41,997 nt of DNA, from assembly GCA_000320545.1 (NCBI GenBank), contig ADNK01003537.1, positions 1 to 41,997 on the forward strand, written 5' to 3'. Shown here one piece after another: positions 15,551 to 41,997 of this stretch (positions are counted from its first letter, which is position 1; every line of letters starts with the position of its first letter). The notes beneath the pieces were generated by a model. The model had not been told where the DNA came from and did not search any database. It was given only the letters and a program-made list of their open reading frames with translations. The DNA is from Bigelowiella natans CCMP2755 (lineage: Eukaryota > Protista > Cercozoa). Made by a program: the position numbers and the translations under genes.

Positions 15551-17797
15551 TAACTATTTTCATAATTGAAATGTTGTAGTAATTGCCAACGAATTAGTTG
15601 TAAAGCAAATGTCACCTCATCCATCTTTCTTCCAAACCCCCCCCCTTCTCCTCCTCCTCGATTTTGCTCTTTATATTTGTACCATTAAGATGTTTTCGGT
15701 TGCTACTCACGCAGTCCCTCAAGTCTTCCTTCAGTGCTTTCTCTTCTACTTCAAGTTGTCATTTATTGAGACGCACTTTTCTCTGATGCAACATTATCGT
15801 ACATTTTGAATGAATGAAACCACAGAAAAACAAGCACCATAAATTGATATCAAAACAATGTACCATGAATTGTTGTTCATATTTTGATAACAATGACAAC
15901 CATGGCAGCACATCTACGGAAGAGGATGAGTTAATTGGCTATAGTTTGGCCCTGTGGTATGCTCAGTTAGGTATGTATTGCAACTGACTTGTTCTCAGCA
16001 GATGTCCTCCCAACGAAATGATGATGATGCAAGAATGAATGGATCCACACACAGGTTCGATAATCCTAAACGGCATCGGAATTGTCCTTGCTCCGAACCA
16101 TAGCCCTGCATTCGACTACGCATATGCAATACCGGTAGGAGTAGTAGATGAGGAAGGATAGATGTTACAACTTGTCGTTATTATTTGTGTGATACTGACA
16201 CAATGGTGATAGATTTGACCTGACGACGAGATGACACCTCTTTCGTTAAACAACTGTTGTCATAGGGGATGAACGTTCATGAAGGCGATATTTCAATCAG
16301 CGAGAAGTAAGTAATCACGCATTTGCCGATCATAAGCATGGGAGTGCTGATACTGATGGTGGTGGAAACATTTTTATTTTGTCATGCCCGTTTGTTAGGC
16401 CTGTACATGATGGCGACCAAAAGTCATCGATGTCAAAAGGAGACAGCTTGATGATGGATGACGTTGATGGGAAAGACACTAAGCACGATACTAAGCACAG
16501 TTTTCGCAAGAAGTCGTCAAAAGGAAAGGTGAAGAGATCTATCTGTTGATGATCATGGTGTGGACATGATTTGTGCTCTTTGTACATTTTGAGAGAATGC
16601 AATGTTGCCGATCCAAAATAGAGGCAGAAATCAATTTGGTAAATGATGGCACGTGTAGGTGGAATCCTCCTTGCCAGACATCAAAGAATGATACTCGCAG
16701 CACAAAGACGCAGTCATTTCAAAGCGGAACTGGAAGTTTGGCATAAGCGTAGGGAATGGCAATGTGGAATTGATGGTGCATCTTGCGGTGCGATCAGTGC
16801 GTACACGCAGCACGCAGCACGCACAGGGAACACTAGTCCCAAAATGCATTGTCATAGAGGCTTTTTTGGCATCAAGTCAATGCTCAATCATTTTGGAGTC
16901 ATCATGTGCATTTTTAGCATGACTAGCAGATGCCTGAAAAATGTTTTTTAGCTTTGGAAACCTGATCAAAACCATTTTCACCGTGATGCGAAGCTTCTAG
17001 GATGAGATTCAGAACGAAGCTTTCGGCTCAGAATGTTAGCATGAAAAAATTTAAAATTTCATTGTTCTGACATGGCAAGGTGACAAAGAGCGTTGCTGCG
17101 CGCGCGTGACGGCGTCCTGTACGTGATGGAGACTGTACAGACTGCACGCATTTATCTACTAGATCTAGCTGCACGGACACAAGTCGACTGAATCTACCGG
17201 TTGTTGTCATGTAGCATGCACACATCAAAACTGATAAGAGAAATAGCACTTTTTTATGCACCAACACGCTGCTGCAATAATGGCCGGTAGCCATACATGC
17301 CGACTGAACACAATGTTCAATGTGTGCATGGGGTGAGCTTCATCGAGGCACGCTCCGATGCATCATGCATCGAGCTAGCGAGGTGCATCGCAGCATCGTA
17401 GCAGTGTGGTCACCTTGTGGTGATATGACAACCCCGTTTAATGAAGTCAGCATGGTGTGTGATGTATAAGTAATAATAATAATAATTATTATAACCGCCA
17501 ATGGCGGTATCTGCGATGTGGGCAGAGCCCACCTGCTCGCAAAGCGATGCGACAGCATTATGCGACTGTATCATTATGCTGTATCATATTACCTTATTAT
17601 ACTTATGTTTCCCAGGGGGTGTTTTCCGGGGGCGGGGGTTATATATATAAAGTATGTAAGTATTTTAATATATATATATATATATATTAAAAAGTTTGGT
17701 TTTTAAAATGCCCCATAAGCCCTCATTAGTTATAAAATGAATGAGGTTAGAAAAAAACACTAATTAAAGTGGGGGTCTGAAAAAAAATGAAGAAGCA

Positions 17798-17960
17798 TAC
17801 GATGTCATTATATGCGATGTGCTATGCCGTGCGAAGCGATATGCCGTGCTATGTATGTATGTATGTTGCGAAGCGATATGCCGTGCTATGTGCCGTGCCG
17901 TGCGAAGCGATTTGCGGTGCTATGTGCCGTGCTATGCGACTGCTGACTAATATGCGACTG
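17798..17960 (+). repeat. Degenerate minisatellite (ATATGCCGTGCT / GCGAAGCG / GCGACTGCT units)
   Basis: Repeated tgccgtgcta and gcgaagcgat units; related tracts at 18661-18815 and 33066-33300. Confidence 0.8.
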
Positions 17961-18034
17961 GTTTGATAGCATTGTGTTGTGAGATGCTCATACGAAAAAC
18001 TTGTTTAAAGAAATGTGTTATATGTAAGTTAGTT

Positions 18035-18652
18035 ATGAACAAATCTAACGAATTGGTGAAAAAATTATTAATTCTTTCTAAATCTAATGACATTGAGAAT
18101 GCTATTGAAGAATGGAAATCTCTGAAAAGTTGTGCGATAGGTAAGCATAAAAAATGTATGATTTCTTGTCAACGATATTGTAGAAGTTTCATAAATTTAG
18201 AAACTTGTAATGTCATATATCTCAAAAACAAATATAGTGAATTAAGTGAATATAAAAATGTTGATGTGGAAGCATCTGCCAACTTTTCAACGAACGAAAA
18301 ACTCTTTTCATATGGTCTTTACAATTACCTAAATGAAAAAAAACGAGTTTTACAACAATTAAACAAAACAAAATATTCGCACAGTTTAAGTCTCAAATTA
18401 AGAGCTAAAAAATCAATCAGTTTCCACGATTTTTTTGAAATTTACAAAAATAAATTAGGCTTTGAAGGATTAATCAAGTTGTTTTTGAAAATTAAAAAAA
18501 TGAGAAAAGTCAAAAACATTTCTAAAAGACACAAAGAATTATTTGATTTCTGTTATGATTTGTTAAAAAGAAAATACAAAAACAAATATTCCATTTATCT
18601 ATCATACAATTATCCAGAAAAAATAACACAACTAAAAAAGAATGTCGTTTGA
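18035..18652 (+). CDS. Hypothetical protein, 205 aa, Cys-containing N-terminal domain
   Basis: Lys-rich ORF. ATG 18035 lies 23 nt after TGTTTAAAGA, so the start is corrected from the ORF track. Confidence 0.7.
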   Translation: MNKSNELVKKLLILSKSNDIENAIEEWKSLKSCAIGKHKKCMISCQRYCRSFINLETCNVIYLKNKYSELSEYKNVDVEASANFSTNEKLFSYGLYNYLNEKKRVLQQLNKTKYSHSLSLKLRAKKSISFHDFFEIYKNKLGFEGLIKLFLKIKKMRKVKNISKRHKELFDFCYDLLKRKYKNKYSIYLSYNYPEKITQLKKNVV

Positions 18653-18660
18653 AAAACAGT

Positions 18661-18815
18661 CACATATGCCGTGCCGAAGCAATATGCTGATAAATATGCG
18701 ACTGCTATTACGAAGCGATATGCGACTGCTATATGCGACTGCTATTACGAAGCGATATATCGTGCTAATACACTGCCATTACAAAGCAATATACTAATAG
18801 ATATGCGACTGCTAC
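18661..18815 (+). repeat. Degenerate minisatellite (ATATGCGACTGCT units)
   Basis: Four atatgcgactgcta copies plus attacgaagcgata x2. Confidence 0.8.
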
Positions 18816-18919
18816 AACATACATGCTTAACAATATAAGCTATTAGCAAAAGGATTCCAGTTTTACAAAACATCCAACTATGATTTCTATTTAAAGAATT
18901 GTCTCACTATAAGATTAAT

Positions 18920-19117
18920 ATGAGTAATATTAATCAAGTAAATAAAAGTAGCACAGCAGATAAAATCTATGATGTTGACTATAAACTTAGTGAAATCGTC
19001 CTCGTAATAGATGAACTAAAAGCCGAACTGAATCCTGAATTCTATCGCAAACTGAGAGATAAACTGATGGAAGTCCACATTTGTCTAATGAGCGAAGTTG
19101 TAGATGGCTATAAATAA
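18920..19117 (+). CDS. Small hypothetical protein, 65 aa
   Basis: ATG 22 nt after TATTTAAAGA (18888-18897). Confidence 0.65.
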   Translation: MSNINQVNKSSTADKIYDVDYKLSEIVLVIDELKAELNPEFYRKLRDKLMEVHICLMSEVVDGYK

Positions 19118-19161
19118 CCATATTTGCTCCAGACTGGACCCGATGTGTGTGCGGAAGCAGT

Positions 19162-20553
19162 CTACATAGCGATGCGAAGATACTCCCCAGATTTGAGACG
19201 ATTACTACCATCACTCCCACCAACAGCAAACAGTTTGCCATCCCCAACAGCCACACCCAACCCACTCCTCACAGTATCCATATCAGGCAGTTTCTTCCAC
19301 CCCGCACCCACATTCTTCAAATCCAGATACTCCCCAGATTTGAGACCCCACCCACCATCATACCCACCAACAGCAAACAGTTTGCCATCCCCAACGGCCA
19401 CACCCAAACCACTCCTCTTAGTATTCATCTCAGGGATTTTCGTCCACCCCTTCATCTCCAGTAATTTTCGTTGTCGCTCTGCTTTTTTCCTCCTTCTTTC
19501 TGCTTCTTCTTTCTTCCTTCTTTCCGCTTCTGCTTTCTTCCTATTTTCTGCCTCAATGTGCGGTCGAATATCCACCGATTTGTCCACTGTGAGGTCGTCC
19601 AGTCTCTCGACGATGTAGGCACTCACCAGCATCTCAGCTTTATGCTTTCCTTTTTTCATCCTGCCTAGCAATCGCTTCCTTTTGAGTTCCTCAGCGATTA
19701 GATTGTGCTTTCTTCCTTCGTCGTTGATGTCTGCCTCCTCATATTCATTTCTGAGTCGTGTGATTTCTTCAGTGGTCTTGTTATACAGAGTTTGAATAGA
19801 ATCCGACAACTGAATTTCCGCTTGGGCGACCGCAGTTATAGTTGCTTTGTCCCCACACTTTCGCAAGGAGGAAAGACTGTGCCCTGTGAAGGATACCCCT
19901 TCCACTATGACACTTTCATCGCTCAACTGAGACACAACTGATATTTTCCCATCGTTGAATTTGTATTTCAGCACAAATTTTGTGTCATTATGCTTGAAAA
20001 CATACTGCTCCGTCGTAAGTTTGTAATCGACTTTCAAACTCTTCTGACCATTCACAATTTCCCGAGCATCCCTTAATTTGCTACAAACTTTCCTTCCTTC
20101 CAACATGTCGGTAATTTCCTTGATTTTCTTGCGATGTTTTCCCAAAATGTCTCGCTGGGTCATAATTTCACGGATTGTGTCTCGCTCCTCGCACTCACCA
20201 TCCAACCCTTCGTCATCCTCTCCTTCATCGCTTTCTCCACCTTCAATTTCATTCTCCAGTTTCCTCAATTGAGTCTCACATTTGGACATATCTTCCTCTC
20301 GCTTCTTCAACTCGTGTTTCAAATTTTCTTTCCAACACTTCAGATGATTTTCTAGTTGCTTCACTTTCTCGCTCACAATCTTGTCTTTGTTGCTCGTTTG
20401 ATTCCCAGAAACAAAGAAAGTCGCAGTGGATCCACGGCTTGTCGAATTTTCGGGGCCACCAATGCCTGAAGCATTCGACACTTTCTTTCGCCTCTTGTTT
20501 TGTCTGTAGCTCACTTTCCAATCATCTTTTCCCAAGAATTGTGACACAGACAT
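19162..20553 (-). CDS. Coiled-coil protein with about two C-terminal Kelch repeats (truncated propeller)
   Basis: 463 aa. 49-aa repeats MxTxRSGLGVAVGDGKLFAVGGxDG..LKSGEYL; 147-bp DNA period. More GC-rich than its flanks. Confidence 0.8.
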   Translation of the reverse strand: MSVSQFLGKDDWKVSYRQNKRRKKVSNASGIGGPENSTSRGSTATFFVSGNQTSNKDKIVSEKVKQLENHLKCWKENLKHELKKREEDMSKCETQLRKLENEIEGGESDEGEDDEGLDGECEERDTIREIMTQRDILGKHRKKIKEITDMLEGRKVCSKLRDAREIVNGQKSLKVDYKLTTEQYVFKHNDTKFVLKYKFNDGKISVVSQLSDESVIVEGVSFTGHSLSSLRKCGDKATITAVAQAEIQLSDSIQTLYNKTTEEITRLRNEYEEADINDEGRKHNLIAEELKRKRLLGRMKKGKHKAEMLVSAYIVERLDDLTVDKSVDIRPHIEAENRKKAEAERRKKEEAERRRKKAERQRKLLEMKGWTKIPEMNTKRSGLGVAVGDGKLFAVGGYDGGWGLKSGEYLDLKNVGAGWKKLPDMDTVRSGLGVAVGDGKLFAVGGSDGSNRLKSGEYLRIAM

Positions 20554-20670
20554 TGTCCTTCCTGATGCTTGATGTCACCAGTCTACACACAGACACAACC
20601 TTCTCTGGTCCTGATTTAGTCACAGGTGTGGAGAGTCTCCAGAGTCTGTTTTCCAAAAAATACATCCAAC

Positions 20671-21753
20671 TTAATTCACGAAAAATCCCCTATCAACTTG
20701 CTTTCTTTTTCGCTTACTTGTCCGTATTTCAACAGGTTCATCGGTCCACCTCTCCCTTGGTTTCGGTGTTTTTTTCTCAATTGCTTTTTTCACTATTTCG
20801 TTTTCAGCAGGTTTCAGTTGATTCTTGCTGAAAGTTTTGTCTAAAACACCTTCCAAAATATATCTTACTGGTCGGTCAGGTAATAATAATATGTTTTCAA
20901 TTTTGTGCGGTTTCAACGAATATCTTATGTCGCCCTCCCTGAAATTGCCTATTTGTTTCTCTCCTTTGAAATTCACAGGATAATCCAATTTGTATCTCAC
21001 CTTCCTACCGACCTCGTATAAATCACAATCGCCTCCCTCCTTACAAGGAACTTCTCCTGTCTGCTTCAACTTCTTCACCTTAGCATTCTCGTTCAACTTC
21101 TTCAATATGTCAGGTAATAACTTTAACCACTGCTTACTTACTTTGTCGTTCTCTAATTCTTTCACCAACTGAGTTTTAATAATAATACTGCCGATACTCT
21201 TATTTCGTGCTTCAACATTTGCTTGTTGACTATGTCTCGCAATACCTGCTCTTCTTAAATATATACCTTTCTCTCTCAAATACCCATCTAATCCTTTTTT
21301 AAACTCACTACCAGCATCTACCTGAAGGATTTTCGGCGGTTTTAATACCTTGTTCTCGTAATATATCTTGTCTATCGCTTTTCTTACCGCTTCAGCAGTT
21401 CTGTATCGTAGAGGTATAGCATCAGTTTGTTTAGTATAATTATCTACTGCTACTAATAAATATCTAAACCCACTATCATTAGGTAGATACAACAAGTCCA
21501 TCTGTCCTCGTTTACCTGGATACCCATAGGCATCGTTGTGGGTTGCTTTTACTTCAGGGTCTTGCTTTTTCTCCCTGGTCAGTTCATCTACTAAATCCTT
21601 ACTCTTCTTGCCGATTAAACTTCCCAGTATGGTTGGTTTCTTCTTTCGTTTGACTATCTTTTTCACTATTTTCTTTTTAGGCATTTCAGTTTCAGTATCA
21701 GTGTCATCATCATCACTACTGCTTTCACTACTATAAGGTTCTTTCTCGTCCAT
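20671..21753 (-). CDS. Retroviral-type (rve) DDE integrase
   Basis: QMDLL (D), RYLLVAVDNYTK, LQVDAGSEF (D) and NVEARNKSI (E). Polinton/mavirus-type C-terminal YEVGRKVR segment; no chromodomain evident. Confidence 0.92.
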   Translation of the reverse strand: MDEKEPYSSESSSDDDDTDTETEMPKKKIVKKIVKRKKKPTILGSLIGKKSKDLVDELTREKKQDPEVKATHNDAYGYPGKRGQMDLLYLPNDSGFRYLLVAVDNYTKQTDAIPLRYRTAEAVRKAIDKIYYENKVLKPPKILQVDAGSEFKKGLDGYLREKGIYLRRAGIARHSQQANVEARNKSIGSIIIKTQLVKELENDKVSKQWLKLLPDILKKLNENAKVKKLKQTGEVPCKEGGDCDLYEVGRKVRYKLDYPVNFKGEKQIGNFREGDIRYSLKPHKIENILLLPDRPVRYILEGVLDKTFSKNQLKPAENEIVKKAIEKKTPKPRERWTDEPVEIRTSKRKRKQVDRGFFVN

Positions 21754-21795
21754 ATATACATAATGTGAGATATAAAATATATGTAGTTTATTTTA

Positions 21796-21990
21796 ATGGA
21801 TAAAGAAATAGAACGAATGCTCATACACAAGGGATTAACCAAAGGAATAATAAGTATGATAGATGAATACCTATATCAAAGTTATTTAGTGTGTTTAACT
21901 CACAATTTCCGCAGACTTAACAATAGTCCTAAACTTAAGTTCATCAACAAATTAAATTTTAAAAAAAAAATATGTAAATTAATAATATAG
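21796..21990 (+). CDS. Small hypothetical protein, 64 aa
   Basis: ATG in an AT-rich context, tightly packed within the element. Confidence 0.5.
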   Translation: MDKEIERMLIHKGLTKGIISMIDEYLYQSYLVCLTHNFRRLNNSPKLKFINKLNFKKKICKLII

Positions 21991-21994
21991 GAAT

Positions 21995-22171
21995 ATGATA
22001 AAGTTAATATATGAATTAATCGTAAATTTACTGCCTGACAATTTTACAACATACAGGAATGATGATGCTGTTGTGGTTTATGACAGGTCAGTGTGGAAGA
22101 TGGAAAGCAGGGACGATGCTATCTTATTGATTAAGAAGAATATATGTAATATGTCAATAATAAATTGTTAA
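21995..22171 (+). CDS. Small hypothetical protein, 58 aa (not in the ORF track)
   Basis: MIKLIYELIVNLLPDNFTTYRNDDAVVVYDRSVWKMESRDDAILLIKKNICNMSIINC*; fills the intergenic gap and is followed by a hairpin. Confidence 0.55.
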   Translation: MIKLIYELIVNLLPDNFTTYRNDDAVVVYDRSVWKMESRDDAILLIKKNICNMSIINC

Positions 22172-22271
22172 TATATATTTATTCCAGATTTCATTTTCAA
22201 CACATTCAACCCTCTTGAAGGTGTTGAAACACAATATTAAATTAAATATAAAAATATATAGTATAATATAT

Positions 22272-23231
22272 ATGAATAGTATACTCAAAGATGTTGACAG
22301 AACTTCTCTCTTTCCAATCAGGCACAAAGACATATGGAATGCCTACAAGATACAACAAGCAGGATACTGGACCGCTGAAGAAATAGATTTCAGTAATGAT
22401 GCCGATGACTTCTCCAAATTAAGTCAGGACGAACAAAAGTATTTAAAATATACCCTTATCTTCTTTGCGAATAGTGATATTGAAGTGAATGAAATGATAA
22501 ATAGGAATCTATACGAGGAGTTTAAGGCATTAGAAATTCGTATGTGCTACGACTTTCAAAGGCAAATGGAAAATATACACACAGAAACATACAATCTACA
22601 GATAGATACTTTGATAAAAGATAAAAAAGAGAAAGAGGATTTGATAAATGCTGTAAAGAATAATCCTATCATAGAACAAAAGATTAACTTCTGTAGGAAA
22701 CAGGTCTTGTTATACAACTCCATACAGCATAAATTGATATGTCAGGTCATCTTTGAAGGCATATTCTTCGCTTCTTCGTTTGCTTGTATTTACTACTTCA
22801 AGCAGAAGGGTATATTGAAAGGTCTAACTTTATCTAATGAGTTTATCAGCAGAGATGAGAACCTACATTATAGTTTCAGCATTATGCTATACAATAAGTT
22901 AGAGAAGAGACTATCACAAGCAGAAGTAGCGGTGTTGTTTGATAAGGCACTATGTATTGAGCGAGACTTCATCACACAAGCATTGCCTGTTAGATTGTTA
23001 GGAATGAATGCGGATATGATGTTAGACTATATCAAATTCACAATAGACAACATATTACTCAAATTAGGTTATGATACAATCCACAATGTGAGTAATCCTT
23101 TGACCTGGATGGAAAGACTGGATTTACAAGGCAAGACCAATTTCTTTGAGAGTAGAGAAAGCAACTACCAATCCGCTAATGTATTAAACGAGAACAAAGA
23201 AGACATCTTTGAAGTAGATTTAAATTTTTAA
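22272..23231 (+). CDS. Ribonucleotide reductase small (beta/R2) subunit, class Ia
   Basis: WTAEEIDFSND, FFANSD, MENIHTETY, EGIFFASSF, NEFISRDENLH and KTNFFE motifs. True ATG at 22272. Confidence 0.96.
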   Translation: MNSILKDVDRTSLFPIRHKDIWNAYKIQQAGYWTAEEIDFSNDADDFSKLSQDEQKYLKYTLIFFANSDIEVNEMINRNLYEEFKALEIRMCYDFQRQMENIHTETYNLQIDTLIKDKKEKEDLINAVKNNPIIEQKINFCRKQVLLYNSIQHKLICQVIFEGIFFASSFACIYYFKQKGILKGLTLSNEFISRDENLHYSFSIMLYNKLEKRLSQAEVAVLFDKALCIERDFITQALPVRLLGMNADMMLDYIKFTIDNILLKLGYDTIHNVSNPLTWMERLDLQGKTNFFESRESNYQSANVLNENKEDIFEVDLNF

Positions 23232-23248
23232 TATCTAAATTATTATAG

Positions 23249-23464
23249 ATGCTACTGGAAATAGTTAGACTATTACAATTACAACTACGATTAAAAAGAT
23301 TAAGAAAAGAGATAAACAAATTGATAAAGCAAAACAAGAAACTGATAAAAGAGAACAGCAAATTGTTGATACAATTAAATATTATGAAACAACCCTTTGA
23401 TGACACTGGTGATTTAACTGATAGTGCTTTTAGGATGTTGATGAACGAAGTAAATGAAAAATAA
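23249..23464 (+). CDS. Small coiled-coil protein, 71 aa
   Basis: TCTA motif 11 nt upstream; Leu heptads. Confidence 0.6.
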   Translation: MLLEIVRLLQLQLRLKRLRKEINKLIKQNKKLIKENSKLLIQLNIMKQPFDDTGDLTDSAFRMLMNEVNEK

Positions 23465-23479
23465 TCTAATCTTTATTAA

Positions 23480-23590
23480 ATGATTGTAGTGTTATTAATA
23501 TTAGGACTTATCTTTTCCATAGGTTATACGATAGGAAAGATAGTAGCAAGGAACACGGATTTAGACCCCACCAACGATATTAGAGTATGA
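23480..23590 (+). CDS. Small single-pass membrane peptide, 36 aa (not in the ORF track)
   Basis: MIVVLLILGLIFSIGYTIGKIVARNTDLDPTNDIRV*; TCTA 11 nt upstream. Confidence 0.55.
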   Translation: MIVVLLILGLIFSIGYTIGKIVARNTDLDPTNDIRV

Positions 23591-23891
23591 TAAGATTAAA
23601 TCTATCAGCATAGTCCTCTAAACTATCCTTCAAATCAGGTTTATTCCACAAGACCCAACGAGATAATGAACCAGCAGTCAGGAATTTGCTCCAATCTTCA
23701 TTCTTCATATGCCTTGTCAGGTATCTATCTTTTCTGTTTATATCTTTATGTATCGTAAAGTCGCTATACCGACTATCTCCAAAGTCGGTGTGTTTTACTT
23801 TTATTATCCTTCCACCCTTATCAACATAAAAGAGCATCCTATGCTTCTTATTTTTAAGAGGTGATTTCATTAGTTTAATATATATTTTCAT
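23580..23891 (-). CDS. Conserved giant-virus/virophage small protein (DUF5754-like)
   Basis: FGDSRYSDFTIHKDINRKDRYLTRH..EDW..AGSLSRWVLW pattern, recognised from memory. Confidence 0.7.
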   Translation of the reverse strand: MKIYIKLMKSPLKNKKHRMLFYVDKGGRIIKVKHTDFGDSRYSDFTIHKDINRKDRYLTRHMKNEDWSKFLTAGSLSRWVLWNKPDLKDSLEDYADRFNLIIL

Positions 23892-23906
23892 ATTATAATG
23901 ATTAAC

Positions 23907-23941
23907 ATAAAATAAATTGTTAAAAAAACAATTTATTTTAT
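23907..23941. terminator. Perfect AT-rich hairpin downstream of the MCP gene (15-bp stem, 5-nt loop)
   Basis: ATAAAATAAATTGTT-aaaaa-AACAATTTATTTTAT; a second 10-bp stem at 23951-23974. Confidence 0.6.
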
Positions 23942-24008
23942 ATTAAGAGGAAAAATAAATTTCTATTTATTTTTTCTTGTTCTTAACAAAAATATTATAA
24001 TATAAAAT

Positions 24009-25832: not shown

Positions 25833-25862
25833 ATATAATTACACCGAGAAAAAAAATTTAAA

Positions 25863-27828: not shown

Positions 27829-27895
27829 ATGTATATATATATAAATCATTAGATATTTTTTTTTTTTCAATAAAATTTTCTATATAATAATTAAT

Positions 27896-33064: not shown

Positions 33065-33065
33065 T

Positions 33066-33300: not shown

Positions 33301-33315
33301 GCAACAAGTGTTTTA

Positions 33316-34080
33316 TTATTCTGCTTTAAGTTCACTTGCCATCAGTTGGTCATAATCTACATCATCCTCTTTTTCTTCATCATCAAACCTACTTTTGCCC
33401 CAAAATGCCTTTTGATGCACATTTCTCAAATCATCCAGTGTGACTGCTTTCCATTCTCGGTTTCTATTAACTTGAAACCAATATCTTTTTCCATTTTGTG
33501 TCACATAGGTAGTAAAACCTACTTTGTATTGCTGTGCATAACCCATCTCTCTTTCCACAAATTCCATTACCATTCTTGTCGCCGTTCTGATTTCTTCCTC
33601 TTTCATTTTTGGCAACAACCACTGCATAGTCTTGTCAATGTCTTCCAATGCTTCTTCCATTTCTGCTCTCTTTGATTTGAAAGTTGTCAACATATAATTC
33701 CATACCGCTCGTAATTGTCCCTCATATTGAAAATATCGCATACTGCCTTTCTGCATTTGGTTAAGTTTCTTCATTTCTTGACCATATATTTTACAAGAAC
33801 TCTTACGGATTTGTTCTATGTTGATTGCATCCTTCTTAATCTTCTTTTTGACACTTTCCAAATTAGCATACCATTGTGAAGCAATCCCATTTGATGCAAT
33901 TTGTGCAGGTTGTGAAAAGTTTTGAGGTTTGTAGGTCTCTATTTGCTTGACCTGTAATTGTAATGGTGCTTTTGGGTCACAGATTTCCATTTGTAATTTT
34001 AATTGTTTGCAAAGGGATGTCATCTTTGCATCGCCGTCGTTGACCCTAAGATTGCTCGTAGCATCACAAAGCATTCGCAT
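33316..34080 (-). CDS. Hypothetical protein, 254 aa
   Basis: Long ORF with plausible composition; no family recognised. Confidence 0.65.
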   Translation of the reverse strand: MRMLCDATSNLRVNDGDAKMTSLCKQLKLQMEICDPKAPLQLQVKQIETYKPQNFSQPAQIASNGIASQWYANLESVKKKIKKDAINIEQIRKSSCKIYGQEMKKLNQMQKGSMRYFQYEGQLRAVWNYMLTTFKSKRAEMEEALEDIDKTMQWLLPKMKEEEIRTATRMVMEFVEREMGYAQQYKVGFTTYVTQNGKRYWFQVNRNREWKAVTLDDLRNVHQKAFWGKSRFDDEEKEDDVDYDQLMASELKAE

Positions 34081-34234
34081 CTGGTTGCCGTTGTCAGCAC
34101 CGCCTTGTAGTCGCTTTGTGAGGTTTAATGGAGTGCTAAAGAAAGAATAATTAAATAATTAGTAACTATGTATCTCCTCCCCCTCTAATGGGTTGAAATT
34201 ACAAATTAAAATAAAATAAATATAAATATATATT

Positions 34235-34855
34235 TTACCTTGTATCCTGAGGAGTTTGATACCGCTTGTCAATCGTTCCTTTCTTCGTAAGTTTTGTCAC
34301 ACCCAAAGTCAGGGTCAAGACCTTATTCTTCTTGCTTTTCTCATCACAGGTCTTGTCTGTAGACTTATTCTTCTTGCTTTTCTTATCACAGGTCTTGTCT
34401 GTAGACTTGGGGAGACCACCCAATATTTTGCTTTTATCAACTGGGGTAGGCACTTTGTATTGCTCTGCGAACTGCTCTCTGAGGTTGTCGTAGTAAGGGT
34501 CTGCTGGAGGCGGTCCAACACCATTAAGCAGGTCTCGTATTTGTTGTGGATTTGTATACATATGTGCGACATCTCGCATATATTTGAGTAGTTTCTTGTT
34601 TCCCTTGTCCTTTTCCAGTGCCGAAACGATTATGGAGATATTAGCATTCCAATCATCACTACCAATTTTGAATGCTTCCTCATTTTCATCCATTAGGATT
34701 TCATTAAAATCGCTCAACCATTTTACTCGCTTTTCCAAGTATTTCTCGTAATGTTTAAATCCAGGTTTTTCTACTGGAGCAGAATTCCACAATTCGTCCC
34801 AAGACCCGAGTCTCTGACTTTGAGCAAGTAGTTTTGATAGTGGTGTTTCCGCCAT
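34235..34855 (-). CDS. Hypothetical protein, 206 aa, with a 14-aa tandem duplication
   Basis: KSTDKTCDxKSKKN x2 (42-bp repeat, 34323-34406); C-terminal LTKKGTIDKRY. Confidence 0.65.
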   Translation of the reverse strand: MAETPLSKLLAQSQRLGSWDELWNSAPVEKPGFKHYEKYLEKRVKWLSDFNEILMDENEEAFKIGSDDWNANISIIVSALEKDKGNKKLLKYMRDVAHMYTNPQQIRDLLNGVGPPPADPYYDNLREQFAEQYKVPTPVDKSKILGGLPKSTDKTCDKKSKKNKSTDKTCDEKSKKNKVLTLTLGVTKLTKKGTIDKRYQTPQDTR

Positions 34856-35035
34856 TGTAAGGAGTGTCGCCTTTTTTGGTGAAAATAATTAAATTGTAGG
34901 GCATTTTGAGAACATTTTTGCCCCTTGTGGAAATAATAAGAGTATTTTGGAATTGCAGGGGGTTTATAATCGTGCAACACCACAAAATGAAACGGTGTAA
35001 CACGAAAATAACTTTTCTGGCTCTTCCCAATGGGA

Positions 35036-35150
35036 GGGGTAGTGCTTTTTGGCTATTTATAGTGTTAGGGGTAGTGCTTTTTGGCTATTTATAGTGTTAG
35101 GGTAGTGCTTTTTGGCTATTTATAGTGTAGGGGTACTACAATTTTTGCTA
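35036..35150 (+). repeat. About 3.5 tandem copies of a ~31-bp unit GGGGTAGTGCTTTTTGGCTATTTATAGTGTTA
   Basis: Direct reading of the sequence. Confidence 0.9.
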
Positions 35151-35203
35151 TTTTTGGAGTTTTAGATTATGTGAATTTACCGAAGCTAAAAGGTCAATCT
35201 CAA

Positions 35204-35330
35204 TGCGAGTGCAGATTTAAAATCTGCACTCGCACTCAAGTGCAGATTTTTGAAACCGACTCGAGTTCCATAAATAGAATTTTTCTGCACTCGAGTTCCA
35301 TAAATAGAATTTAATCTGCACTCGAGAGCA
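35204..35330. repeat. Perfect palindrome with 15-bp arms followed by 30-bp-period direct repeats
   Basis: TGCGAGTGCAGATTT-a-AAATCTGCACTCGCA (35204-35234); ACTCGAGTTCCATAAATAGAATTT at 35259 and 35289. Confidence 0.9.
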
Positions 35331-36333
35331 GAATTACCAAAATCCTATTAATAGCACCCCTTGGTATTCACCAAAGGCGATTTGTTTTTCCCCTGCTTGT
35401 CGCCTTGTCTTACTATCCTCTCGTTTTCCCCAAATCGTTTACGAGGGCATTTATTTATTTTTTGGTCACAATTTCTTGTCGCAGGGTAAGAAATTGGTTG
35501 TCGCACTTTCCTAATCTCAAATACTATGGATGTGAGATTTTCTACAGTGTATCAGAGAGTCTCTGGTTCTCTAAAAAGAAATGCCCTCACTTCTAGGAAT
35601 TTTCTACGAATCATAATTTAAAATTTCGCAGGTGTGAATACCCACATCAACTCCCATCTCTCTACTTGTCTCCAGTTCCTTCCTAATCAGTCACAAAGCT
35701 ATGTTTCTCAAAACTGTAACTTAAGATTGAAAACTAACAATATCAAAGTTCTTTATGAAACATAAACCTATGGTCCTACCTAAAAAAATAGCAAATAATA
35801 AATAATAAATAAAATAGATGCTATTAGATAAAAAGCCAAATGCAAATACAAGTCACGAAAATACATTACCTACTGACCTACTAAGACTCAAAATCAGCAG
35901 TTTTTAGCTTTCATAGCACAATACAACTGAAATATTCAAAACACACAGAAATAAAAATATTTTCTTCAGATATTTAGAAGGTAAAATGAGAAGGTAGAAG
36001 AGAAATTAGAAGTAAAAATGAGAAAACAGAACATTTGCTGGAAAAATACAACTGAGTTATCAACTGTGGACATTAGCAAGTTGTAAAAAATAGAAAAATA
36101 ACTTTTAGTAGTGTTTCAGTTGGAAAGCTGAGAACTGAAAAATATTTGCTTGTAAATATAGATGTGTTTGTATGTAGCTGTAGCTACTACGACCTATTAA
36201 CACTTCGCATCTCAGTGTGGAATACAATTTAGTTTTGGTTTCTTCTTCCCACCCCAACATTTATCATAACACTACACTGTTCAAAGGGTTGAAAACACAA
36301 ATCACAGCAATTAAACAATACATATATGAATGC

Positions 36334-36343: not shown

Positions 36344-36367
36344 TATATTAATATATATATCATATTA

Positions 36368-36667: not shown

Positions 36668-38191
36668 ATGGATAATATTAATCCTGCTATTCTGGACTAT
36701 GCGAACAGCATCAGTGTGCTTAATGAGAAACCTGTCATCACTGTTGATTACAGATTTTTTACCGATGTGTTGCCTACTTACAGCGACGAATGTTGGGCAA
36801 AACTATTTTATGATTTGAACAAAGATGCTTACATATACAATCAGGAACATAAGATTTGGTTCTTCTACGATGAGAACAACATTGTGAAGTCCTACAAAAA
36901 GGAAGCACCAGTCTTTCTAAACAACCAAATTTCCACATGCTTACAGCATGTCCTAAAAACAGAGTTTGCTAAGATTGGAAAGGATAAGAAATACAAAGCA
37001 GAATACTTAAAGAATTTTAGAAAGGTGGGAAGCAATGCCTTTAGTAAGAACATCATCGCAAAACTAATGAAATACTACAACGATGAGGATGTATTGAACA
37101 AAATAGATAAAAATAAGAACCTATTAGCATTCAAAGATTGTGTGTATGACCTTGAAACAAAGAATTATAGAGATATAGAAAAGAAAGACTTCATTTCTAA
37201 TCACATCAAATTCAAACTTAAACCCAGAAGATCAATTAAACAAGAGGTGAGAAAGGACATATTGGATTTCATTTTCGGCATACAGGAAACACAACAAGAT
37301 GCTCTGTTTCTGCTAAAATTATTAGCAAACAGTCTCTTTTACAATAAGTTTGGATTGCTAATTATGTTTTTAGGAAGTGGTGGGAATGGGAAAGGTGTCT
37401 TAACTGCTCTTCATCAAGTAGCAACTTCCAAATATTGTAACATAGTTTCTTCTCAGTTCCTAACAACGAAATACAAAGCGAATGCCCCTAATAGTGATTT
37501 ATATAAATGTATGGATAAGCGATTGGTTGTTGTTAATGAACCTGAAGAAAATGAAGGCGATAAAGAACTATCTTTCAATGTAAGTTTTCTCAAAAAAATT
37601 ACCGATAATGATACAGTTAGTTGTAGAGAGATGTATGATACCCCTGTGGAATTCCTTGCTGATTTTAGCATCTTCTGCTTATGTAATAATGCTCCGAAAT
37701 TAGATAGTGTAGATGATAGCATTAAACGAAGGTTCTTAAACATCCAATTCCCTTTTCAATTCAAAGAAAAACCTGACCCTAAGAACAAATATGAAAAGAA
37801 AAGAGATTACACTCTCAAAGATAAGTTCAGAAACAACAAAGAATATCGTAGAGAATACATCAAACTATTGTTAGAACATGTAGATATGGAGAAATTAAAC
37901 CCTCCCGAAAAGGTATTAAAATTCACAAACGATTATTTAAACGATAACAATCACACCTTAAATTTCATTGAAGAGAATTACGATGTTACTGATGATGTTA
38001 GAGATAGAATTTTATACAACGATATTTATAAACACTTTAAAAGTTGGTCTCCGGTTTACATATCTAAAAGCAACTTCAAAAAGCAAATGTTAGCAAACAA
38101 ATTTCTTTTTGGTAAAGTGAGAGGAAGGTTCTACTTTAAGAAATTAATAAAGAAAGAAGATGATGAAGAAGAGGTAGATATAAATGTATAG
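36668..38191 (+). CDS. D5-like superfamily 3 helicase (no obvious primase domain)
   Basis: D5_N-like NLLAFKDCVYDL; Walker A GSGGNGKG; Walker B VVVNE; motif C LCNN; SIKRRF arginine finger. Confidence 0.92.
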   Translation: MDNINPAILDYANSISVLNEKPVITVDYRFFTDVLPTYSDECWAKLFYDLNKDAYIYNQEHKIWFFYDENNIVKSYKKEAPVFLNNQISTCLQHVLKTEFAKIGKDKKYKAEYLKNFRKVGSNAFSKNIIAKLMKYYNDEDVLNKIDKNKNLLAFKDCVYDLETKNYRDIEKKDFISNHIKFKLKPRRSIKQEVRKDILDFIFGIQETQQDALFLLKLLANSLFYNKFGLLIMFLGSGGNGKGVLTALHQVATSKYCNIVSSQFLTTKYKANAPNSDLYKCMDKRLVVVNEPEENEGDKELSFNVSFLKKITDNDTVSCREMYDTPVEFLADFSIFCLCNNAPKLDSVDDSIKRRFLNIQFPFQFKEKPDPKNKYEKKRDYTLKDKFRNNKEYRREYIKLLLEHVDMEKLNPPEKVLKFTNDYLNDNNHTLNFIEENYDVTDDVRDRILYNDIYKHFKSWSPVYISKSNFKKQMLANKFLFGKVRGRFYFKKLIKKEDDEEEVDINV

Positions 38192-38668: not shown

Positions 38669-39860
38669 ATGTTGCCGAAAAGAAAGAAATACAGATGTGC
38701 TACCAATTACAACCGAAAAACCTTTGGTGTCTACCATTACAACAGAGATGAGAAAGAATACCATTTAACTGTAGATGGTGAGAACATCCTACGAAGCAAA
38801 ACACTGGAAGGGTATAATTTATATGTTCTTAAACCATCAAAGAACAGCAATGTGATTGAAGAATATGGAAAGAAAATGAACGATTTTCATCAGTTTAAAG
38901 CAATCACAGGTTATGACTACAAACGAAGCAACTACGATGATACAGAGATGAGTTTATACATTTGGAATCAGTTTAGACCACAGGAGGTAGAGTTTGGAAA
39001 GACTACAGAAATGGAAGAAGAATGGGTATATAAAGCAAGTAGAGGTGGAATACGATATAGTGTGGATGGAGAATATCAAAACAAAGACTATATCAAATTG
39101 GATTTGAATAAAAAATACACATCCGTGCTATGTAGCAATTATTTCACTATTCCTTTAGGGACACCTATGACAAGAACCATAACACAGGAACAAGTTGATA
39201 AGTATTACAAATTCAATTATGGTTTATACAACATAGAAATAAGCAAAGATGATGATGTATTTTTTAAATACAACAAACATAATATTTATACTCATCTTGA
39301 ACTAAAACAAGCAAAAGAATTAGGATTGAAATTGAACCTATTGGACACCAATTATCTGTATTACAAAGAGAAATTAAAGTCCATAAAACTATTTGGTAAA
39401 TTCTTTCACAGATTATTACCTCATTCAAAATCTCAAGATTTAGTAAAACTAATAATGAATAAACTGTGGGGTATTTTTCAAACCAAGTTGAGAAGAAAGG
39501 TCAACACAAAGCAAGTGATAGAAATTGATGACCGAGAAAGTAATGAAACCCCTACATACAAAATAGGACCTGATGGATATACGATATTGTCCTTGACTAA
39601 ATTTTGAAGAAGAAAAGAAGTATTTTAAATACTATGCCTGTAGAATAGCACCATTTCTTACCTCTTATGTGAGAACCTATATGGTTGGTTTGATAAATGA
39701 ATACAAAGACGATGTTATTTATTCTCATACCGATAGTTTAGTGATAGCAAGAAGCAAAGCAATACATTTTGAAATTAGTGATGAACTTGGGAAATGGAAA
39801 GAGGAGGAACTTCCTAAACACTTCAAAGTGGAGAAAAGTATGCTTGTACAAATGAATTAA
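38669..39860 (+). CDS. Divergent family-B (protein-primed type) DNA polymerase, split by a +1 frameshift at ~39602-39607
   Basis: RGG, motif A LDLNKKYTS and motif B KLIMNKLWG in the first frame; RIAPFLTSYVR, motif C YSHTDS and ELGKWKEE in the +1 frame. Confidence 0.85.
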
Positions 39861-39948: not shown

Positions 39949-40278
39949 ATGAGTTTTGCGAACTATTTAAATGTTGATAGGACCACCAAGGCAGTAGAGT
40001 TTAATGTCGGCAATGTTGACTTTGATTTAGATGATATTGAATGTGATAAAATTAAAGTAAATAACCAATTAATAGCACCTGAAATCACAAGTCTACAAAA
40101 TGAAGTAGGTGAGATAAAGAGCGAGATAAATGCGATAAAGAACGATATTATATCGTTCAAAGCGGATGTGCTGGATACGATAAATCAAATACTACAAGCA
40201 CTACAGATAGACCATACAAACAAGAGCATAACGACCGCTTATGATTTAAAGGTCACAGGCAACTTAGAGCAGGGATAA
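39949..40278 (+). CDS. Coiled-coil, fibre-like protein, 109 aa
   Basis: Heptad repeats; C-terminal LKVTGNLEQG resembles the end of the next ORF. Confidence 0.7.
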   Translation: MSFANYLNVDRTTKAVEFNVGNVDFDLDDIECDKIKVNNQLIAPEITSLQNEVGEIKSEINAIKNDIISFKADVLDTINQILQALQIDHTNKSITTAYDLKVTGNLEQG

Positions 40279-40317
40279 AATCTTTAAAAATAATTATTTT
40301 CTAAACTATGTTATATA

Positions 40318-40929
40318 ATGTCCGTATCTTCTACCGCACATTTTAGAAATACCGTATTAATAGATGGAGAACTCACAGGTTTAACCATCACAAGGATTGA
40401 TACAGAGAAGACCGCTGTGTTAAATTCTTTAAATGCTCACATAACAACTTATAATGACAGCGAGACTGCTAATGCTACAGCAAGAGCAGGATTACAAACA
40501 CAGATAGATGATGCTAATACTGCTACTACACAAGCAATTACCAATTTACAGCAAGAAATTGATGACAATAAAAATGACATTGAAGGCAAACTCGCTACTG
40601 AAACCAGTGCGAGATTATCTTTAGAAAATGCTCACAATACAAGAAGTAACTATGTGGATGGTGAGATTTCCAGATTAGATGGATTACATACAAACGATAG
40701 TGCCAGATTAGATGCCGTTGAAGCAGCACAAGCAACTGTTAATACTGACATTGAAGCAAAAATTCAGGAGAGAATTGACCAACACAATGCTGATTTAGAT
40801 AATACACTTCCTCGTTTAGCAAAATTAGAAGAGTATTTAGAAATTGATGAAACCGACCCTTCTAATCCAGTTGTGAGAATCAAGGCAGGAGTTCAATTTG
40901 AAGTATCAGGAAATTTCATTCAAAGTTAA
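40318..40929 (+). CDS. Coiled-coil, fibre-like protein, 203 aa
   Basis: Heptads ETANATARAGLQTQID, ETSARLSLE; ends FEVSGNFIQS; TCTA motif upstream. Confidence 0.75.
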   Translation: MSVSSTAHFRNTVLIDGELTGLTITRIDTEKTAVLNSLNAHITTYNDSETANATARAGLQTQIDDANTATTQAITNLQQEIDDNKNDIEGKLATETSARLSLENAHNTRSNYVDGEISRLDGLHTNDSARLDAVEAAQATVNTDIEAKIQERIDQHNADLDNTLPRLAKLEEYLEIDETDPSNPVVRIKAGVQFEVSGNFIQS

Positions 40930-41065
40930 ATTTAATTATGTGTATTTATATATTTATTCTAATATTGATATTCAACCCTTTCAACACCCTTGAAGGTGTT
41001 GAAAATGAAATCTGGAATAAATATATATTTAATATTTTTTTATCTAAACTATATTAAATATATAT

Positions 41066-41932
41066 ATGAGTGCAGCAAATTATTTTACACGATTAAGTGA
41101 TGGTAGATTGATAATGGATGTAAACAACGACGGAATATTAGAAGCAAAAGGAATTCAGGTTCAAGACACGATTAGGGTGAAAAACATAATAGTTGAAGAT
41201 AATATCAAATCTGCTTCAATTACCTTAAATAATCAAAACTTTACAACAAACAATAACAACATTTCAGCAGGAATAGATGGTATAACAACTACGATGAATG
41301 ACAGAATAGACTTTAGCAAGAACATTCAGTTGAATGCTGGTAAGACTATCACAGGAGATACTGCGAATTTCACAAGTATTAACCTGGATGGTAATAATCT
41401 TGCGACCCAACTCACAAAGATAAGTGAGAATACCACCAACATTGCTAATAATACGACCAAAATCAACGAGAACTTGGTTCAAAGAATTTCCAATGATAAT
41501 GATATTATAAGTAACTCTAATAGAATAACACAAAATACTAATAGGATAGTTAGCAACGAGAGTTTAATAAACGGACATACTGTTTCTATTCAGTCCAATA
41601 GCACAAGAACAAACACGAATACAAGCAATATCACTTCCAATACTAACCGAATATCTACGAATGAAAGTGGGATAAACACCATCAAAACTGATGTAGCAAC
41701 AAACACAACTAACATAAATACTAATACCACTACTATAAGCAATAATACAACCAATATTGGTAGCAATACAACCAATATTAATAATATAGGTACGAAAATA
41801 GACCATTTCACTATCAATCCTACCAACATTAATATCACAAACAAGGACTTTCTTGTGAATGAATTACCAACAGGTTCCAACTACAGGGACTACGAACATC
41901 CAGTTGAAAACAAATGGGGATGTCATTTCTAA
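41066..41932 (+). CDS. Asn/Thr/Ile-rich trimeric coiled-coil fibre-like protein; the 3' end is probably frameshifted
   Basis: IxxNTxx heptads (ITSNTNRISTNESGI..ISNNTTNIGSNTTNI); TCTA motif upstream. Confidence 0.75.
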   Translation: MSAANYFTRLSDGRLIMDVNNDGILEAKGIQVQDTIRVKNIIVEDNIKSASITLNNQNFTTNNNNISAGIDGITTTMNDRIDFSKNIQLNAGKTITGDTANFTSINLDGNNLATQLTKISENTTNIANNTTKINENLVQRISNDNDIISNSNRITQNTNRIVSNESLINGHTVSIQSNSTRTNTNTSNITSNTNRISTNESGINTIKTDVATNTTNINTNTTTISNNTTNIGSNTTNINNIGTKIDHFTINPTNINITNKDFLVNELPTGSNYRDYEHPVENKWGCHF

Positions 41933-41997
41933 AAATTACAGAGTGATATATAATTAATACCATAATCTCACACCCAGAGCATAAATGTTGAAACTAT

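Follow-up and report, generated by a model that had tools for sequence, protein, structure and literature searches.

The window, the whole stretch of 41,997 nucleotides of the alga Bigelowiella natans analysed here, comprises a host-type flank (20-17484, 37-49% GC) and a virophage part (17.5-42 kb, 29-37% GC). Protein families were searched using Pfam with curated cut-offs, PHROG, the PDB and a protein atlas. As a comparison set, 491 IMG/VR stretches with relatives of the major capsid protein (MCP) were assembled, of which 80 virophage loci were kept. None of 13 flank ORFs has a Pfam domain above cut-off, and RNA reads lie over 16709-17017 at a depth of about 7-11. The scaffold opens with degenerate CCCTAA-type units at positions 1-19. 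These are the telomere-like repeats described in a first-pass annotation of this DNA; they comprise just 19 nt, and the 12-mer pattern (up to two mismatches) is found at nine sites across the window versus 1.6 expected by chance, so that these units argue only faintly for a telomere. A subtelomeric placement, read from these 19 nt, is at best hinted at. The flank is single copy at least over 16400-17484, where runs X12 and X3 yield a contig of 2177 nt with flat, single-copy word depth whose last position is 17484. In three DNA runs, single-copy depth stops at this position and repeated DNA starts from 17493 at the latest. The step up in depth at 17484-17493 is accompanied by loose ends. Its left edge is a high-copy terminal module (17493-17610) containing a CCGCCA/TGGCGG palindrome, with a summed word depth about 60 times that of single-copy DNA (X12, X3); other copies of the module diverge before 17493 and past 17610 in the three DNA runs. 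Among the Logan contigs of these runs, none spans the junction between host and element (17484-17563). A missing contig and a join at a module repeated some 60-fold would suit an assembly chimera, in which host and viral DNA were wrongly joined at about 17.49 kb. Such an error is nevertheless highly improbable, since short-read contigs are expected to break at any repeat, 14 DNA runs contain 70-75% of the words sampled from 16000-25900, a range lying on both sides of the join, and a preprint handles the scaffold as one locus, mapped across 15 lines (bioRxiv 10.64898/2026.01.13.699255).

On the left side of the element, a tandem array of TGCTATGTGCCG-type units (17812-17960, plus strand) has related arrays on the same strand at 18660-18815 and 33084-33279. 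A viral-looking ORF of 222 aa (17984-18652, plus strand, 25% GC) is present at about 3-4 times single-copy depth, has no Pfam or PHROG match and no homologue in the 80 virophage loci, and received almost no RNA reads in 6% of the RNA run. A truncated Kelch gene (18904-20553, minus strand) consists of an ORF at 19162-20553 and a 3' UTR reaching a poly(A) site at 18904. It belongs to a B. natans multigene family of coiled-coil and Kelch proteins (Kelch_1, 53 bits) with seven Bigna1 paralogues on other scaffolds, and encodes 463 aa versus 569-615 aa in members with the full Kelch set. Its GC content is 45% and its rho TpA 0.39; poly-T loose ends are found before 18904, and RNA depth is 77-94, with reads perhaps derived from paralogues. 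The rve (retroviral-type) integrase proposed by the first-pass annotation (20671-21753, minus strand, 360 aa) is confirmed by PF00665 (39.9 bits, cut-off 32.6). Twelve of its 38 relatives combine rve with a chromodomain, and a paralogue on B. natans scaffold 85 lies three gene models from an MCP paralogue. Likewise confirmed is the ribonucleotide reductase (RNR) small subunit (22272-23231, plus strand; PF00268, 263 bits), which is full length; seven of the 80 loci encode homologues that are 37-41% identical. A palindromic intergenic element (TTCAAC...GTTGAA) at 22159-22272 recurs at 40927-41040. A DUF5754 protein (23580-23891, minus strand; PF19058, 50.3 bits) has homologues in nine loci.

The MCP (24009-25832, minus strand, 607 aa) is full length and of the Sputnik virophage type. 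It matches the Pfam families Sputnik_MCP_1st (128.5 bits) and MCP_V20_C (120.3 bits; cut-offs 27) as well as Sputnik V20 in the PDB (E 7e-17), and is identical to B. natans gene model jgi/Bigna1/144261 at 578 of 581 positions. The penton, or minor capsid, protein (25863-27152, minus strand) matches Pfam V18-19 (63.8 bits) and the Sputnik minor virion protein 3j26_N (E 2e-12), with homologues in 77 of the 80 loci. A lysine-rich ORF (27178-27849, minus strand) has no family match in Pfam or PHROG; its likely start is the eighth codon, and TCTA is located at -25 from this internal ATG. The gene previously called a lipase (27896-28663, plus strand) is less firmly identified, as a lipase-like alpha/beta hydrolase with a readable GHSLGG motif and homologues in 22 of 80 loci; all its Pfam matches stay under the curated cut-off. 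The cysteine (maturation) protease (28671-29234, plus strand) has no match in Pfam and falls, at an atlas score of 0.98, among Preplasmiviricota clusters labelled 'cysteine protease'; homologues occur in 35 loci. An ORF of 554 aa (29255-30919, plus strand) with TCTA at -17 has no family match in Pfam or PHROG and no homologue in the 80 loci. The FtsK/HerA-type packaging ATPase (30962-31821, plus strand; homologues in 23 loci) is broken near 31086-31092 by a frameshift of 1 nt, the N-terminal 42 codons occupying 30962-31087 and the remainder 31093-31821 in another frame. Its predicted structure (pLDDT 83) has the YSLV5 packaging ATPase as best viral match (E 3.7e-25, TM 0.83, 41% identity), followed in the fold ranking by Sputnik V3, adintovirus and mavirus (rank 6, 19% identity). 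The morphogenesis genes for MCP, penton, protease and ATPase, earlier described as a complete module, are all present, the ATPase with a broken reading frame. A Cys-rich repeat protein (31862-32686, minus strand) with 54-bp repeats carries a C-terminal HNH-like motif. The motif is readable by eye, but the protein has no match in Pfam or the PDB; B. natans scaffold 2 carries a paralogue that is at least 90% identical.

A non-viral-looking block of 3.2 kb (33065-36270) contains tandem arrays, two ORFs (33316-34080 and 34235-34855, minus strand, 37-41% GC), 31-bp repeats and then non-coding DNA. It has no family match, no atlas relative and no homologue in the 80 virophage loci. To its right, the SF3 helicase of the first-pass annotation is confirmed as a D5-type enzyme (36668-38191, plus strand, 507 aa) by Pfam D5_N and DUF5906; PHROG matches it to DNA primase (E 1e-43), and paralogues lie on B. 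natans scaffolds 2 and 119. The annotated PolB (38669-39857, plus strand) is a real homologue of protein-primed, phi29-type polymerases, but a short one consisting of the polymerase domain only and carrying a 1-nt frameshift near 39600. Its tail, in another frame, matches residues 311-396 of an intact relative of about 397 aa, which likewise lacks the exonuclease domain. Three ORFs of 109, 203 and 288 aa (39949-41932, plus strand), rich in coiled coil and Asn/Thr repeats, have no family match in Pfam or PHROG, and 'fibre' is a guess at what they encode. The rve integrase, the PolB-like gene, all 'fibre' ORFs and the HNH-like gene have a homologue in none of the 80 related virophage loci; part of the element, including integrase, PolB-like gene and 'fibre' ORFs, may for this reason have another origin.

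Among the viral ORFs, 10 of 20 have TCTA between -12 and -32, versus 53 of 602 other ATGs, a difference whose statistics are inflated because this interval was picked after inspection of the data. Two of the three 'fibre' ORFs are preceded by TCTA; in the MCP it is absent from the interval. In a comparison with 35 related virophage loci, no more than 68 of their 411 ORFs show TCTA at these positions. A second motif, TTTAAAGA, is located at -32 to -37 of 5 of the 20 ORFs and does not overlap with the TCTA set. It marks replication-side ORFs; the HNH-like gene, located on the capsid side, is among its carriers. Both motifs are absent from the 33065-36270 block. From the sequence we infer two promoter classes, TCTA (-12 to -32) on the capsid side and TTTAAAGA (about -35) in the helicase/PolB block.

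The differing motifs are also what would be seen if two partial elements, or a virophage and some other mobile element, had been joined at 33.07-36.27 kb, in which case the capsid/integrase half and the helicase/PolB/'fibre' half would not be one genome. The tandem array shared in identical orientation by 17812-17960 and 33084-33279 fits such a composite, as does the lack of PolB-like and 'fibre' homologues in the 80 MCP-related loci. We regard it as improbable, since 12 of the 80 virophage loci have a D5 helicase homologue no more than 10 kb from the MCP, the HNH-like gene on the capsid side has the TTTAAAGA motif and base composition is equal on both sides. Moreover, B. natans scaffold 2 has paralogues of the HNH and helicase genes three proteome entries apart, pointing to a sister copy with the same gene order.

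Taken as one element, the virophage has its closest affinities with YSLV5-type virophages (MCP clade Vp.cl15, Paez-Espino et al. 2019), as indicated by the ATPase and by the literature, in which the MCP of the B. natans virophage groups with those of YSLV5 and the Trout Bog virophages. Related IMG/VR contigs also contain genes for RNR small subunit, lipase, DUF5754 and D5 helicase. It differs from these virophages in residing in a eukaryotic chromosome and in possessing the integrase, short PolB, HNH-like and 'fibre' genes; the nearest MCPs from outside Bigelowiella reach only 41-42% identity. Mavirus and the EMALEs of Cafeteria burkhardae are likewise virophages integrated in a protist nuclear genome, and they share the rve integrase, a protein-primed-type PolB and TCTA 5' of genes, which corresponds to a late promoter known from an alliimimivirine giant virus. 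In contrast to them, the replication-side genes here carry TTTAAAGA instead of TCTA, and the ATPase and the exonuclease-free PolB set the element apart from mavirus. The claim of a lineage distinct from mavirus was borne out. The description of the genes as a mavirus-like set did not hold, given the YSLV5-type affinities of MCP and ATPase, the short PolB and the lack of integrase and PolB homologues in the 80 loci. Polintons and PLVs, also integrated in the B. natans genome (Krupovic et al. 2016), have the broad class Preplasmiviricota in common with the element, with MCP, penton, ATPase and protease. The MCP and penton, however, match virophage-specific Pfam families and Sputnik capsid proteins and not the capsids of PLVs or Polintons.

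We conclude that the window from about 17,490 to 41,997 is very probably a virophage genome integrated in B. natans nuclear DNA, namely the previously published scaffold-146 provirophage, in a slightly decayed copy predicted to depend on sister copies. Its virophage identity is supported by the capsid, penton, rve, RNR and D5 profile matches, and its integration by repeated AT-rich DNA beside a single-copy flank. The element measures at least 24.5 kb and runs off the scaffold end, its right end lying beyond. The provirophage is not new. B. natans provirophages were reported in 2015 (Blanc et al. 2015) and are described as transcribed; a GC content below that of the flank and densely packed virus-like ORFs, both noted in published summaries, are also seen here. 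Scaffold 146, 17,000-41,997, is itself presented by Mettrop et al. 2026 (bioRxiv 10.64898/2026.01.13.699255) as a virophage-derived region with TpA hypermutation, named 'virophage hypermutable region'; in some culture lines, TpA>TpG/CpA mutations arise there about 1000 times faster than elsewhere in the genome. The end of this interval equals the window length, and the AT-rich block has the same start, which identifies the two as the same entity. The frameshifts, the nested host-like blocks and the two motif classes were not found in the available portion of that description. Rho TpA in the viral genes is 0.78-1.03, in agreement with the 9.2% TpA given in the preprint. This lack of TpA depletion suggests that the copy may be young, even though decay has begun.

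Short base runs are a common place of assembly errors, and both frameshifts fall at such runs and could be errors of this kind. If they are, the element could be a fully functional, self-sufficient, inducible provirophage with the host-like blocks as tolerated cargo, a reading also favoured by intact promoter-like motifs, the absence of TpA depletion and remaining core genes that are all full length compared with their homologues. We consider this rather unlikely. Two independent frame breaks both affect essential genes, the 3.2-kb block without viral features separates capsid and replication modules, the right terminus is absent from the scaffold, and hypermutation of the locus is ongoing according to the preprint. 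The earlier description as largely intact is only partly borne out, being weakened by the frameshifts in ATPase and PolB, the Kelch fragment, the 3.2-kb block and the missing right end.

As a decayed provirophage, the copy is likely unable to make particles alone, judged from the frameshifted packaging ATPase and polymerase genes, and particle formation from scaffold 146 would depend on sister copies. The virophage would have entered via its own rve integrase. Reactivation and host protection are demonstrated features of mavirus and the EMALEs; for this element the first-pass annotation proposed them as possible. ChlorV, a giant virus that infects B. natans and has now been isolated from it, uses TCTA as the motif of its late promoters, and mavirus-type elements use TCTA with CroV. 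TCTA 5' of viral ORFs together with a separate TTTAAAGA on the replication side is possibly new. A ChlorV-like giant virus would likely switch on the capsid-side genes via the TCTA motifs, and the two promoter classes would pass transcription to the machinery of a co-infecting mimivirid, as in mavirus with CroV.

The right part of the window, from about 17.5 kb onwards, is a genuine integrated virophage. The hallmarks of virophages (Maveriviricetes / Lavidaviridae sensu lato) are present, i.e. a double jelly-roll major capsid protein (MCP), a penton, a FtsK/HerA-type packaging ATPase and a cysteine maturation protease, and the virophage gene set proposed by the first-pass annotation was largely right. 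Base composition changes at about 17.5 kb, from 37-49% GC on the left to mostly 29-37% GC on the right, where 19-21 kb and 33-35 kb stand out as GC-richer blocks. The MCP (24009-25832, minus strand) matches Sputnik_MCP_1st (PF21915) with 128.5 bits and MCP_V20_C (PF22031) with 120.3 bits (cut-offs 27), and the penton or minor capsid protein (25863-27152, minus strand) matches V18-19 (PF21507) with 63.8 bits. Both recover the solved Sputnik capsid, the MCP with V20 (E 7e-17) and the penton with the minor virion protein 3j26_N (E 2e-12). A Polinton or polinton-like virus MCP, the alternative named by the annotation, was not found: the capsid types of these elements are not matched, the window's capsid genes match virophage Pfam families only, and the assignment to a distinct virophage holds.

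Among 23 ORFs between 17.9 and 42 kb, a Pfam match at E <= 0.01 was obtained for 11 and none for 12. Matches above the curated cut-offs comprise an rve integrase (PF00665; 20671-21753, minus strand), a DUF5754 protein (23580-23891, minus strand), a D5_N + DUF5906 helicase (36668-38191, plus strand) and Kelch repeats (19162-20553, minus strand); the small subunit of ribonucleotide reductase (RNR; 22272-23231, plus strand) scores 263 bits. Of 38 integrase relatives 12 also have a chromodomain, which was not detected in the window's integrase itself. Pfam found no family for the protease (28671-29234, plus strand), which is grouped with cysteine-protease clusters of Preplasmiviricota in the protein atlas (score 0.98). 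Even at E up to 5 there was no Pfam match for the protease, the fragment and the tail of the PolB-like gene, the HNH-like ORF (31862-32686, minus strand), ORF222 (17984-18652, plus strand), orf554 (29255-30919, plus strand), orf223 (27178-27849, minus strand), two ORFs at 33.3-34.9 kb and orf288, one of the three 'fibre' ORFs in 39949-41932 (plus strand). The HNH-like ORF had no match by PDB sequence search either; it contains four 54-bp tandem repeats, each coding for a Cys-rich unit (C..C.GGS.CEHG...). Neither tRNA genes nor Rfam families were found.

Both the locus and the provirophage family have been described already. According to later papers, the first report on B. natans provirophages (Blanc et al. 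2015) comprises 38 virophage-like elements, six of them complete with terminal inverted repeats (TIRs), transcribed and of lower GC content than their flanks; nuclear location and a GC content lower than that of the flank (29-37% versus 37-49%) are common to the element studied here. A preprint by Mettrop et al. 2026 (bioRxiv 10.64898/2026.01.13.699255) describes positions 17,000-41,997 of B. natans scaffold 146 as a virophage-derived region. Since the length of 41,997 bases and the AT-rich block from about 17.5 kb agree, the window's element is this scaffold-146 locus. The best database match of the MCP is jgi/Bigna1/144261 of Bigelowiella natans (578 of 581 residues identical); the second match is 94% identical, and thereafter identity falls to 42%. 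An integrase relative in B. natans lies three gene models from an MCP relative on the same scaffold, and the B. natans proteome set includes both helicase and HNH-like ORF, whose paralogues on scaffolds 2 and 119 are at least 90% identical. An exact look-up retrieved two of ten ORFs. The novelty claimed by the first-pass annotation is therefore lost to this near-identity and to the equal coordinates in the preprint, the family having been reported in 2015. As a discovery the element adds little, B. natans provirophages being textbook examples since 2015 and the exact interval being treated in the 2026 preprint.

Regarding lineage, the element appears nearer to YSLV5-type virophages than to mavirus. 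By sequence (Pfam, PDB sequence search) the ATPase (30962-31821, plus strand) gave generic P-loop matches only, and its structure was therefore modelled from an alignment of 15 homologues from virophage contigs (pLDDT 83). The best viral match of the model is the packaging ATPase of Yellowstone Lake virophage 5 (E 3.7e-25, TM 0.83, 41% identity), followed by those of Sputnik V3, an adintovirus and mavirus; among solved structures, the STIV2 B204 packaging NTPase fits best. Identity to the mavirus ATPase is 19%, as compared to 41% for YSLV5, and later papers put the B. natans virophage MCP in clade Vp.cl15, together with YSLV5. The PolB-like ORF (312 aa; 38669-39607, plus strand) has no Pfam match. 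An exhaustive HMMER search yielded 606 relatives, DNA_pol_B_2 being matched by four of the 22 scanned, two over the cut-off and two just under it. The best relative (397 aa, 80% identical) aligns over residues 1 to 311, and the alignment with relatives of about 600 aa begins only at their residue ~220-300. The family profile matches phi29 DNA polymerase (E 8e-10), and phi29 polymerase also takes the first six places among the fold matches of the model (E 0.004-0.03). The gene therefore codes for a protein-primed-type family B polymerase domain that lacks an exonuclease domain. Full-length PolB with an exonuclease domain, as in mavirus-like virophages and EMALEs, is not matched; the rve integrase is common to both.

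Two genes seem to be broken. Virophage ATPase homologues begin with MPxLxF...PIAIVKGG; the counterpart in the window lies at 30962-31087 with a stop at its end, and the remainder including the Walker motifs follows at 31093-31821 in a different frame, suggesting a frameshift after about codon 41. Likewise, the C-terminal 86 residues of the 397-aa PolB relative correspond to 39597-39857 in another frame, and a 1-nt frameshift at "...LTKF|EEEKKYF..." probably disrupts the gene. All core genes other than ATPase and PolB have end-to-end homologue coverage. The element is less intact than the first-pass annotation described it.

Related loci were collected from IMG/VR, where an alignment-based scan gave 491 MCP relatives, of which 80 loci (30-37% identity) were kept; a scan with a single protein as query found no relatives, and no MCP relative was found in the 'phages' collection. 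Every ORF of the window was compared to the 80 loci by tblastn. Homologues were present for the MCP in 80, penton in 77, protease in 35, ATPase in 23, lipase in 22, helicase in 12, DUF5754 in nine and the RNR small subunit in seven. None was found in the 80 loci for the integrase, the PolB-like and HNH-like ORFs, orf554, orf223, the three 'fibre' ORFs, ORF222, the Kelch ORF and the two ORFs at 33.3-34.9 kb, an absence that is weak evidence because many of the loci are partial.

The left boundary was addressed by read evidence over 16400-19470. Word depth, a sum over all matching contigs and a rough copy-number guide only, is low and flat up to 17429 in three DNA runs, rises about 60-fold over 17430-17635, and amounts to about 3-4-fold at 17945-18665, 15-20-fold at 18769-19180 and 50-200-fold in the Kelch repeats. 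A contig of 2177 nt stops at 17484 in two DNA runs, and the sequence of other copies departs before 17493 and behind 17610. Because of this contig end, the depth jump and the divergence of the other copies, repeated DNA begins at 17485-17493, with a very common module of ~118 nt. The module (17493-17610) carries a CCGCCA/TGGCGG palindrome and reaches, in two DNA runs, a word depth ~60 times that of single-copy sequence. Either the terminal repeats of the provirophages share it as their tip, or it could be a small repeat of its own. No contig bridging the junction of host and element was found in the runs compared over this interval, and no inverted partner of 17493-17983 is present within the window, the right end of the element lying beyond the scaffold. 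The label of a subtelomeric position, proposed in addition, rests on 19 nt.

In about 6% of one RNA run, reads fall on 16709-17017 of the flank and hardly at all on ORF222. A minus-strand 3' end with poly(A) at 18904 is covered as well, at an RNA depth of 77-94; these reads may come from paralogues, since RNA and DNA records both diverge at 19195. The interval 18870-19195 resembles a 3'-UTR module at ~15-20 times depth, other genomic copies of which are joined to different sequence right of 19195. Six marine metatranscriptome runs (X15-X20) contain 7-13% of the sampled words of 16000-25900, no more than a pointer to a possible transcription of nearly identical sequence in the sea.

Host-like DNA is nested in the element. 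Over its N-terminal 365 aa, the Kelch ORF is related to seven named B. natans paralogues from other scaffolds and to one MMETSP transcript; paralogues with the full Kelch set measure 569-615 aa, as compared to 463 aa here, and the ORF (GC 45%, rho TpA 0.39) belongs to a host gene family, of which it is a truncated copy. A second block, 33.07-36.27 kb, opens with a tandem array also found at 17812-17960 and contains two ORFs without relatives (Pfam, atlas, 80 loci); for 33316-34080 there was no credible atlas relative (best 0.89, recognition 1596). Read by eye, the joining of 34235-34855 and 33316-34080 as exons across an AG|GT...AG intron was rejected, as the splice would meet a stop after ~20 codons. 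Virophage-like intergenic sequence returns at ~36.28 kb. Related tandem arrays at 17812-17960, 18660-18815 and 33084-33279, all on one strand and with units like TGCTATGTGCCG and ATATGCGACTGCT, flank ORF222 and start the 33-36 kb block. A palindromic intergenic element, TTCAAC(N)TTCAACCCTCTTGAAGGTGTTGAA, is present at 22159-22272 and 40927-41040 (79% alike), with a partial copy near 36280, and could serve either as a hairpin terminator or for regulation in both directions.

In mutation accumulation, the preprint (bioRxiv 10.64898/2026.01.13.699255) reports 20 de novo mutations in the scaffold-146 region, all A>G or T>C at TpA, a rate ~1000 times the genomic one and a TpA frequency of 9.2%. In agreement with it, viral genes (rho TpA 0.78-1.03, rho CpA+TpG 1.0-1.26) are without long-term TpA depletion, and the attack or the insertion would therefore be recent. 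Differences from paralogues amount to three amino acids in the MCP and five in the integrase, the TpA signature not being fitted. Strong TpA depletion is found in patches of the flank, at 1-2000 (rho TpA 0.24, rho CpA+TpG 1.57) and 6001-8000 (0.26 and 1.49), whose ORFs have no Pfam family; the same preprint ascribes such depletion to hypermutated foreign DNA as a long-term signature. The higher-GC blocks were considered as hypermutated virophage DNA and this was discarded, 19.2-20.6 kb being a member of the host Kelch family and the integrase having a rho TpA of 0.91. Nor can the TGCTATGTGCCG arrays be AT repeats hypermutated by TpA>CpA, because several of their C's are not followed by A. That a hypermutated copy has frame breaks in ATPase and polymerase and nested host-like DNA bears on whether the host targets a live or a dying element.

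Upstream motifs fall into two classes. With the start of the ATPase and one other start corrected, TCTA, mostly as (A/T)TATCTAA, lies 12-32 nt upstream of the ATG in 10 of 20 viral ORFs (orf71, penton, orf223, lipase, protease, orf554, ATPase, orf104 and two 'fibre' ORFs) and at 53 of 602 other ATGs of the viral segments; the MCP has no TCTA within this interval. Five other ORFs (HNH-like, orf78, helicase, orf128 and PolB) carry TTTAAAGA at -32 to -37, a motif with 12 occurrences on both strands of 18.2 kb. Nominal p-values of about 1e-5 to 1e-6 are optimistic, because the motif windows were chosen after the sequences had been seen. Both motifs are absent from the 33.07-36.27 kb block. In 35 of the 80 related loci, those of at least 10 kb, TCTA stands within the same upstream interval for 68 of 411 ORFs versus 1490 of 15,986 control ATGs. 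Most MCP relatives of the element are without the TCTA seen on its capsid-side genes, and a single locus, L015, resembles the window (TCTA in six of ten ORFs). This IMG/VR contig (12.9 kb, 29% GC) also gives the best protease match (41% identity).

ChlorV, a mimivirid isolated in 2026, infects B. natans; its late motif TCTA is described as shared "only with" CroV, and its early motif as AAAAATTGA. EMALEs of the mavirus type have TCTA and respond to CroV. The TCTA motifs of the 10 ORFs, together with their late use by ChlorV, are an indirect hint that the element may depend on a co-infecting giant virus for replication, as virophages do. In the passages covered of papers on Bigelowiella, TCTA and virophages, TCTA is not tied to B. 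natans provirophages. Given the late core of ChlorV and CroV on capsid-side genes and a separate TTTAAAGA class on replication genes, we tentatively propose, as a possibility that we hold rather doubtful, that the provirophage of scaffold 146 is geared to ChlorV, infection by which would transcribe and mobilise the provirophage family. Novelty, if any, lies in this promoter link, which we infer from the two motif classes. As one class equals the ChlorV late promoter core and the virus is in culture, it offers a direct and cheap prediction for infection experiments. If true, this would be the first culturable triad of host, giant virus and endogenous virophage in Rhizaria, and the locus concerned would be the one provirophage for which hypermutation by the host is known.
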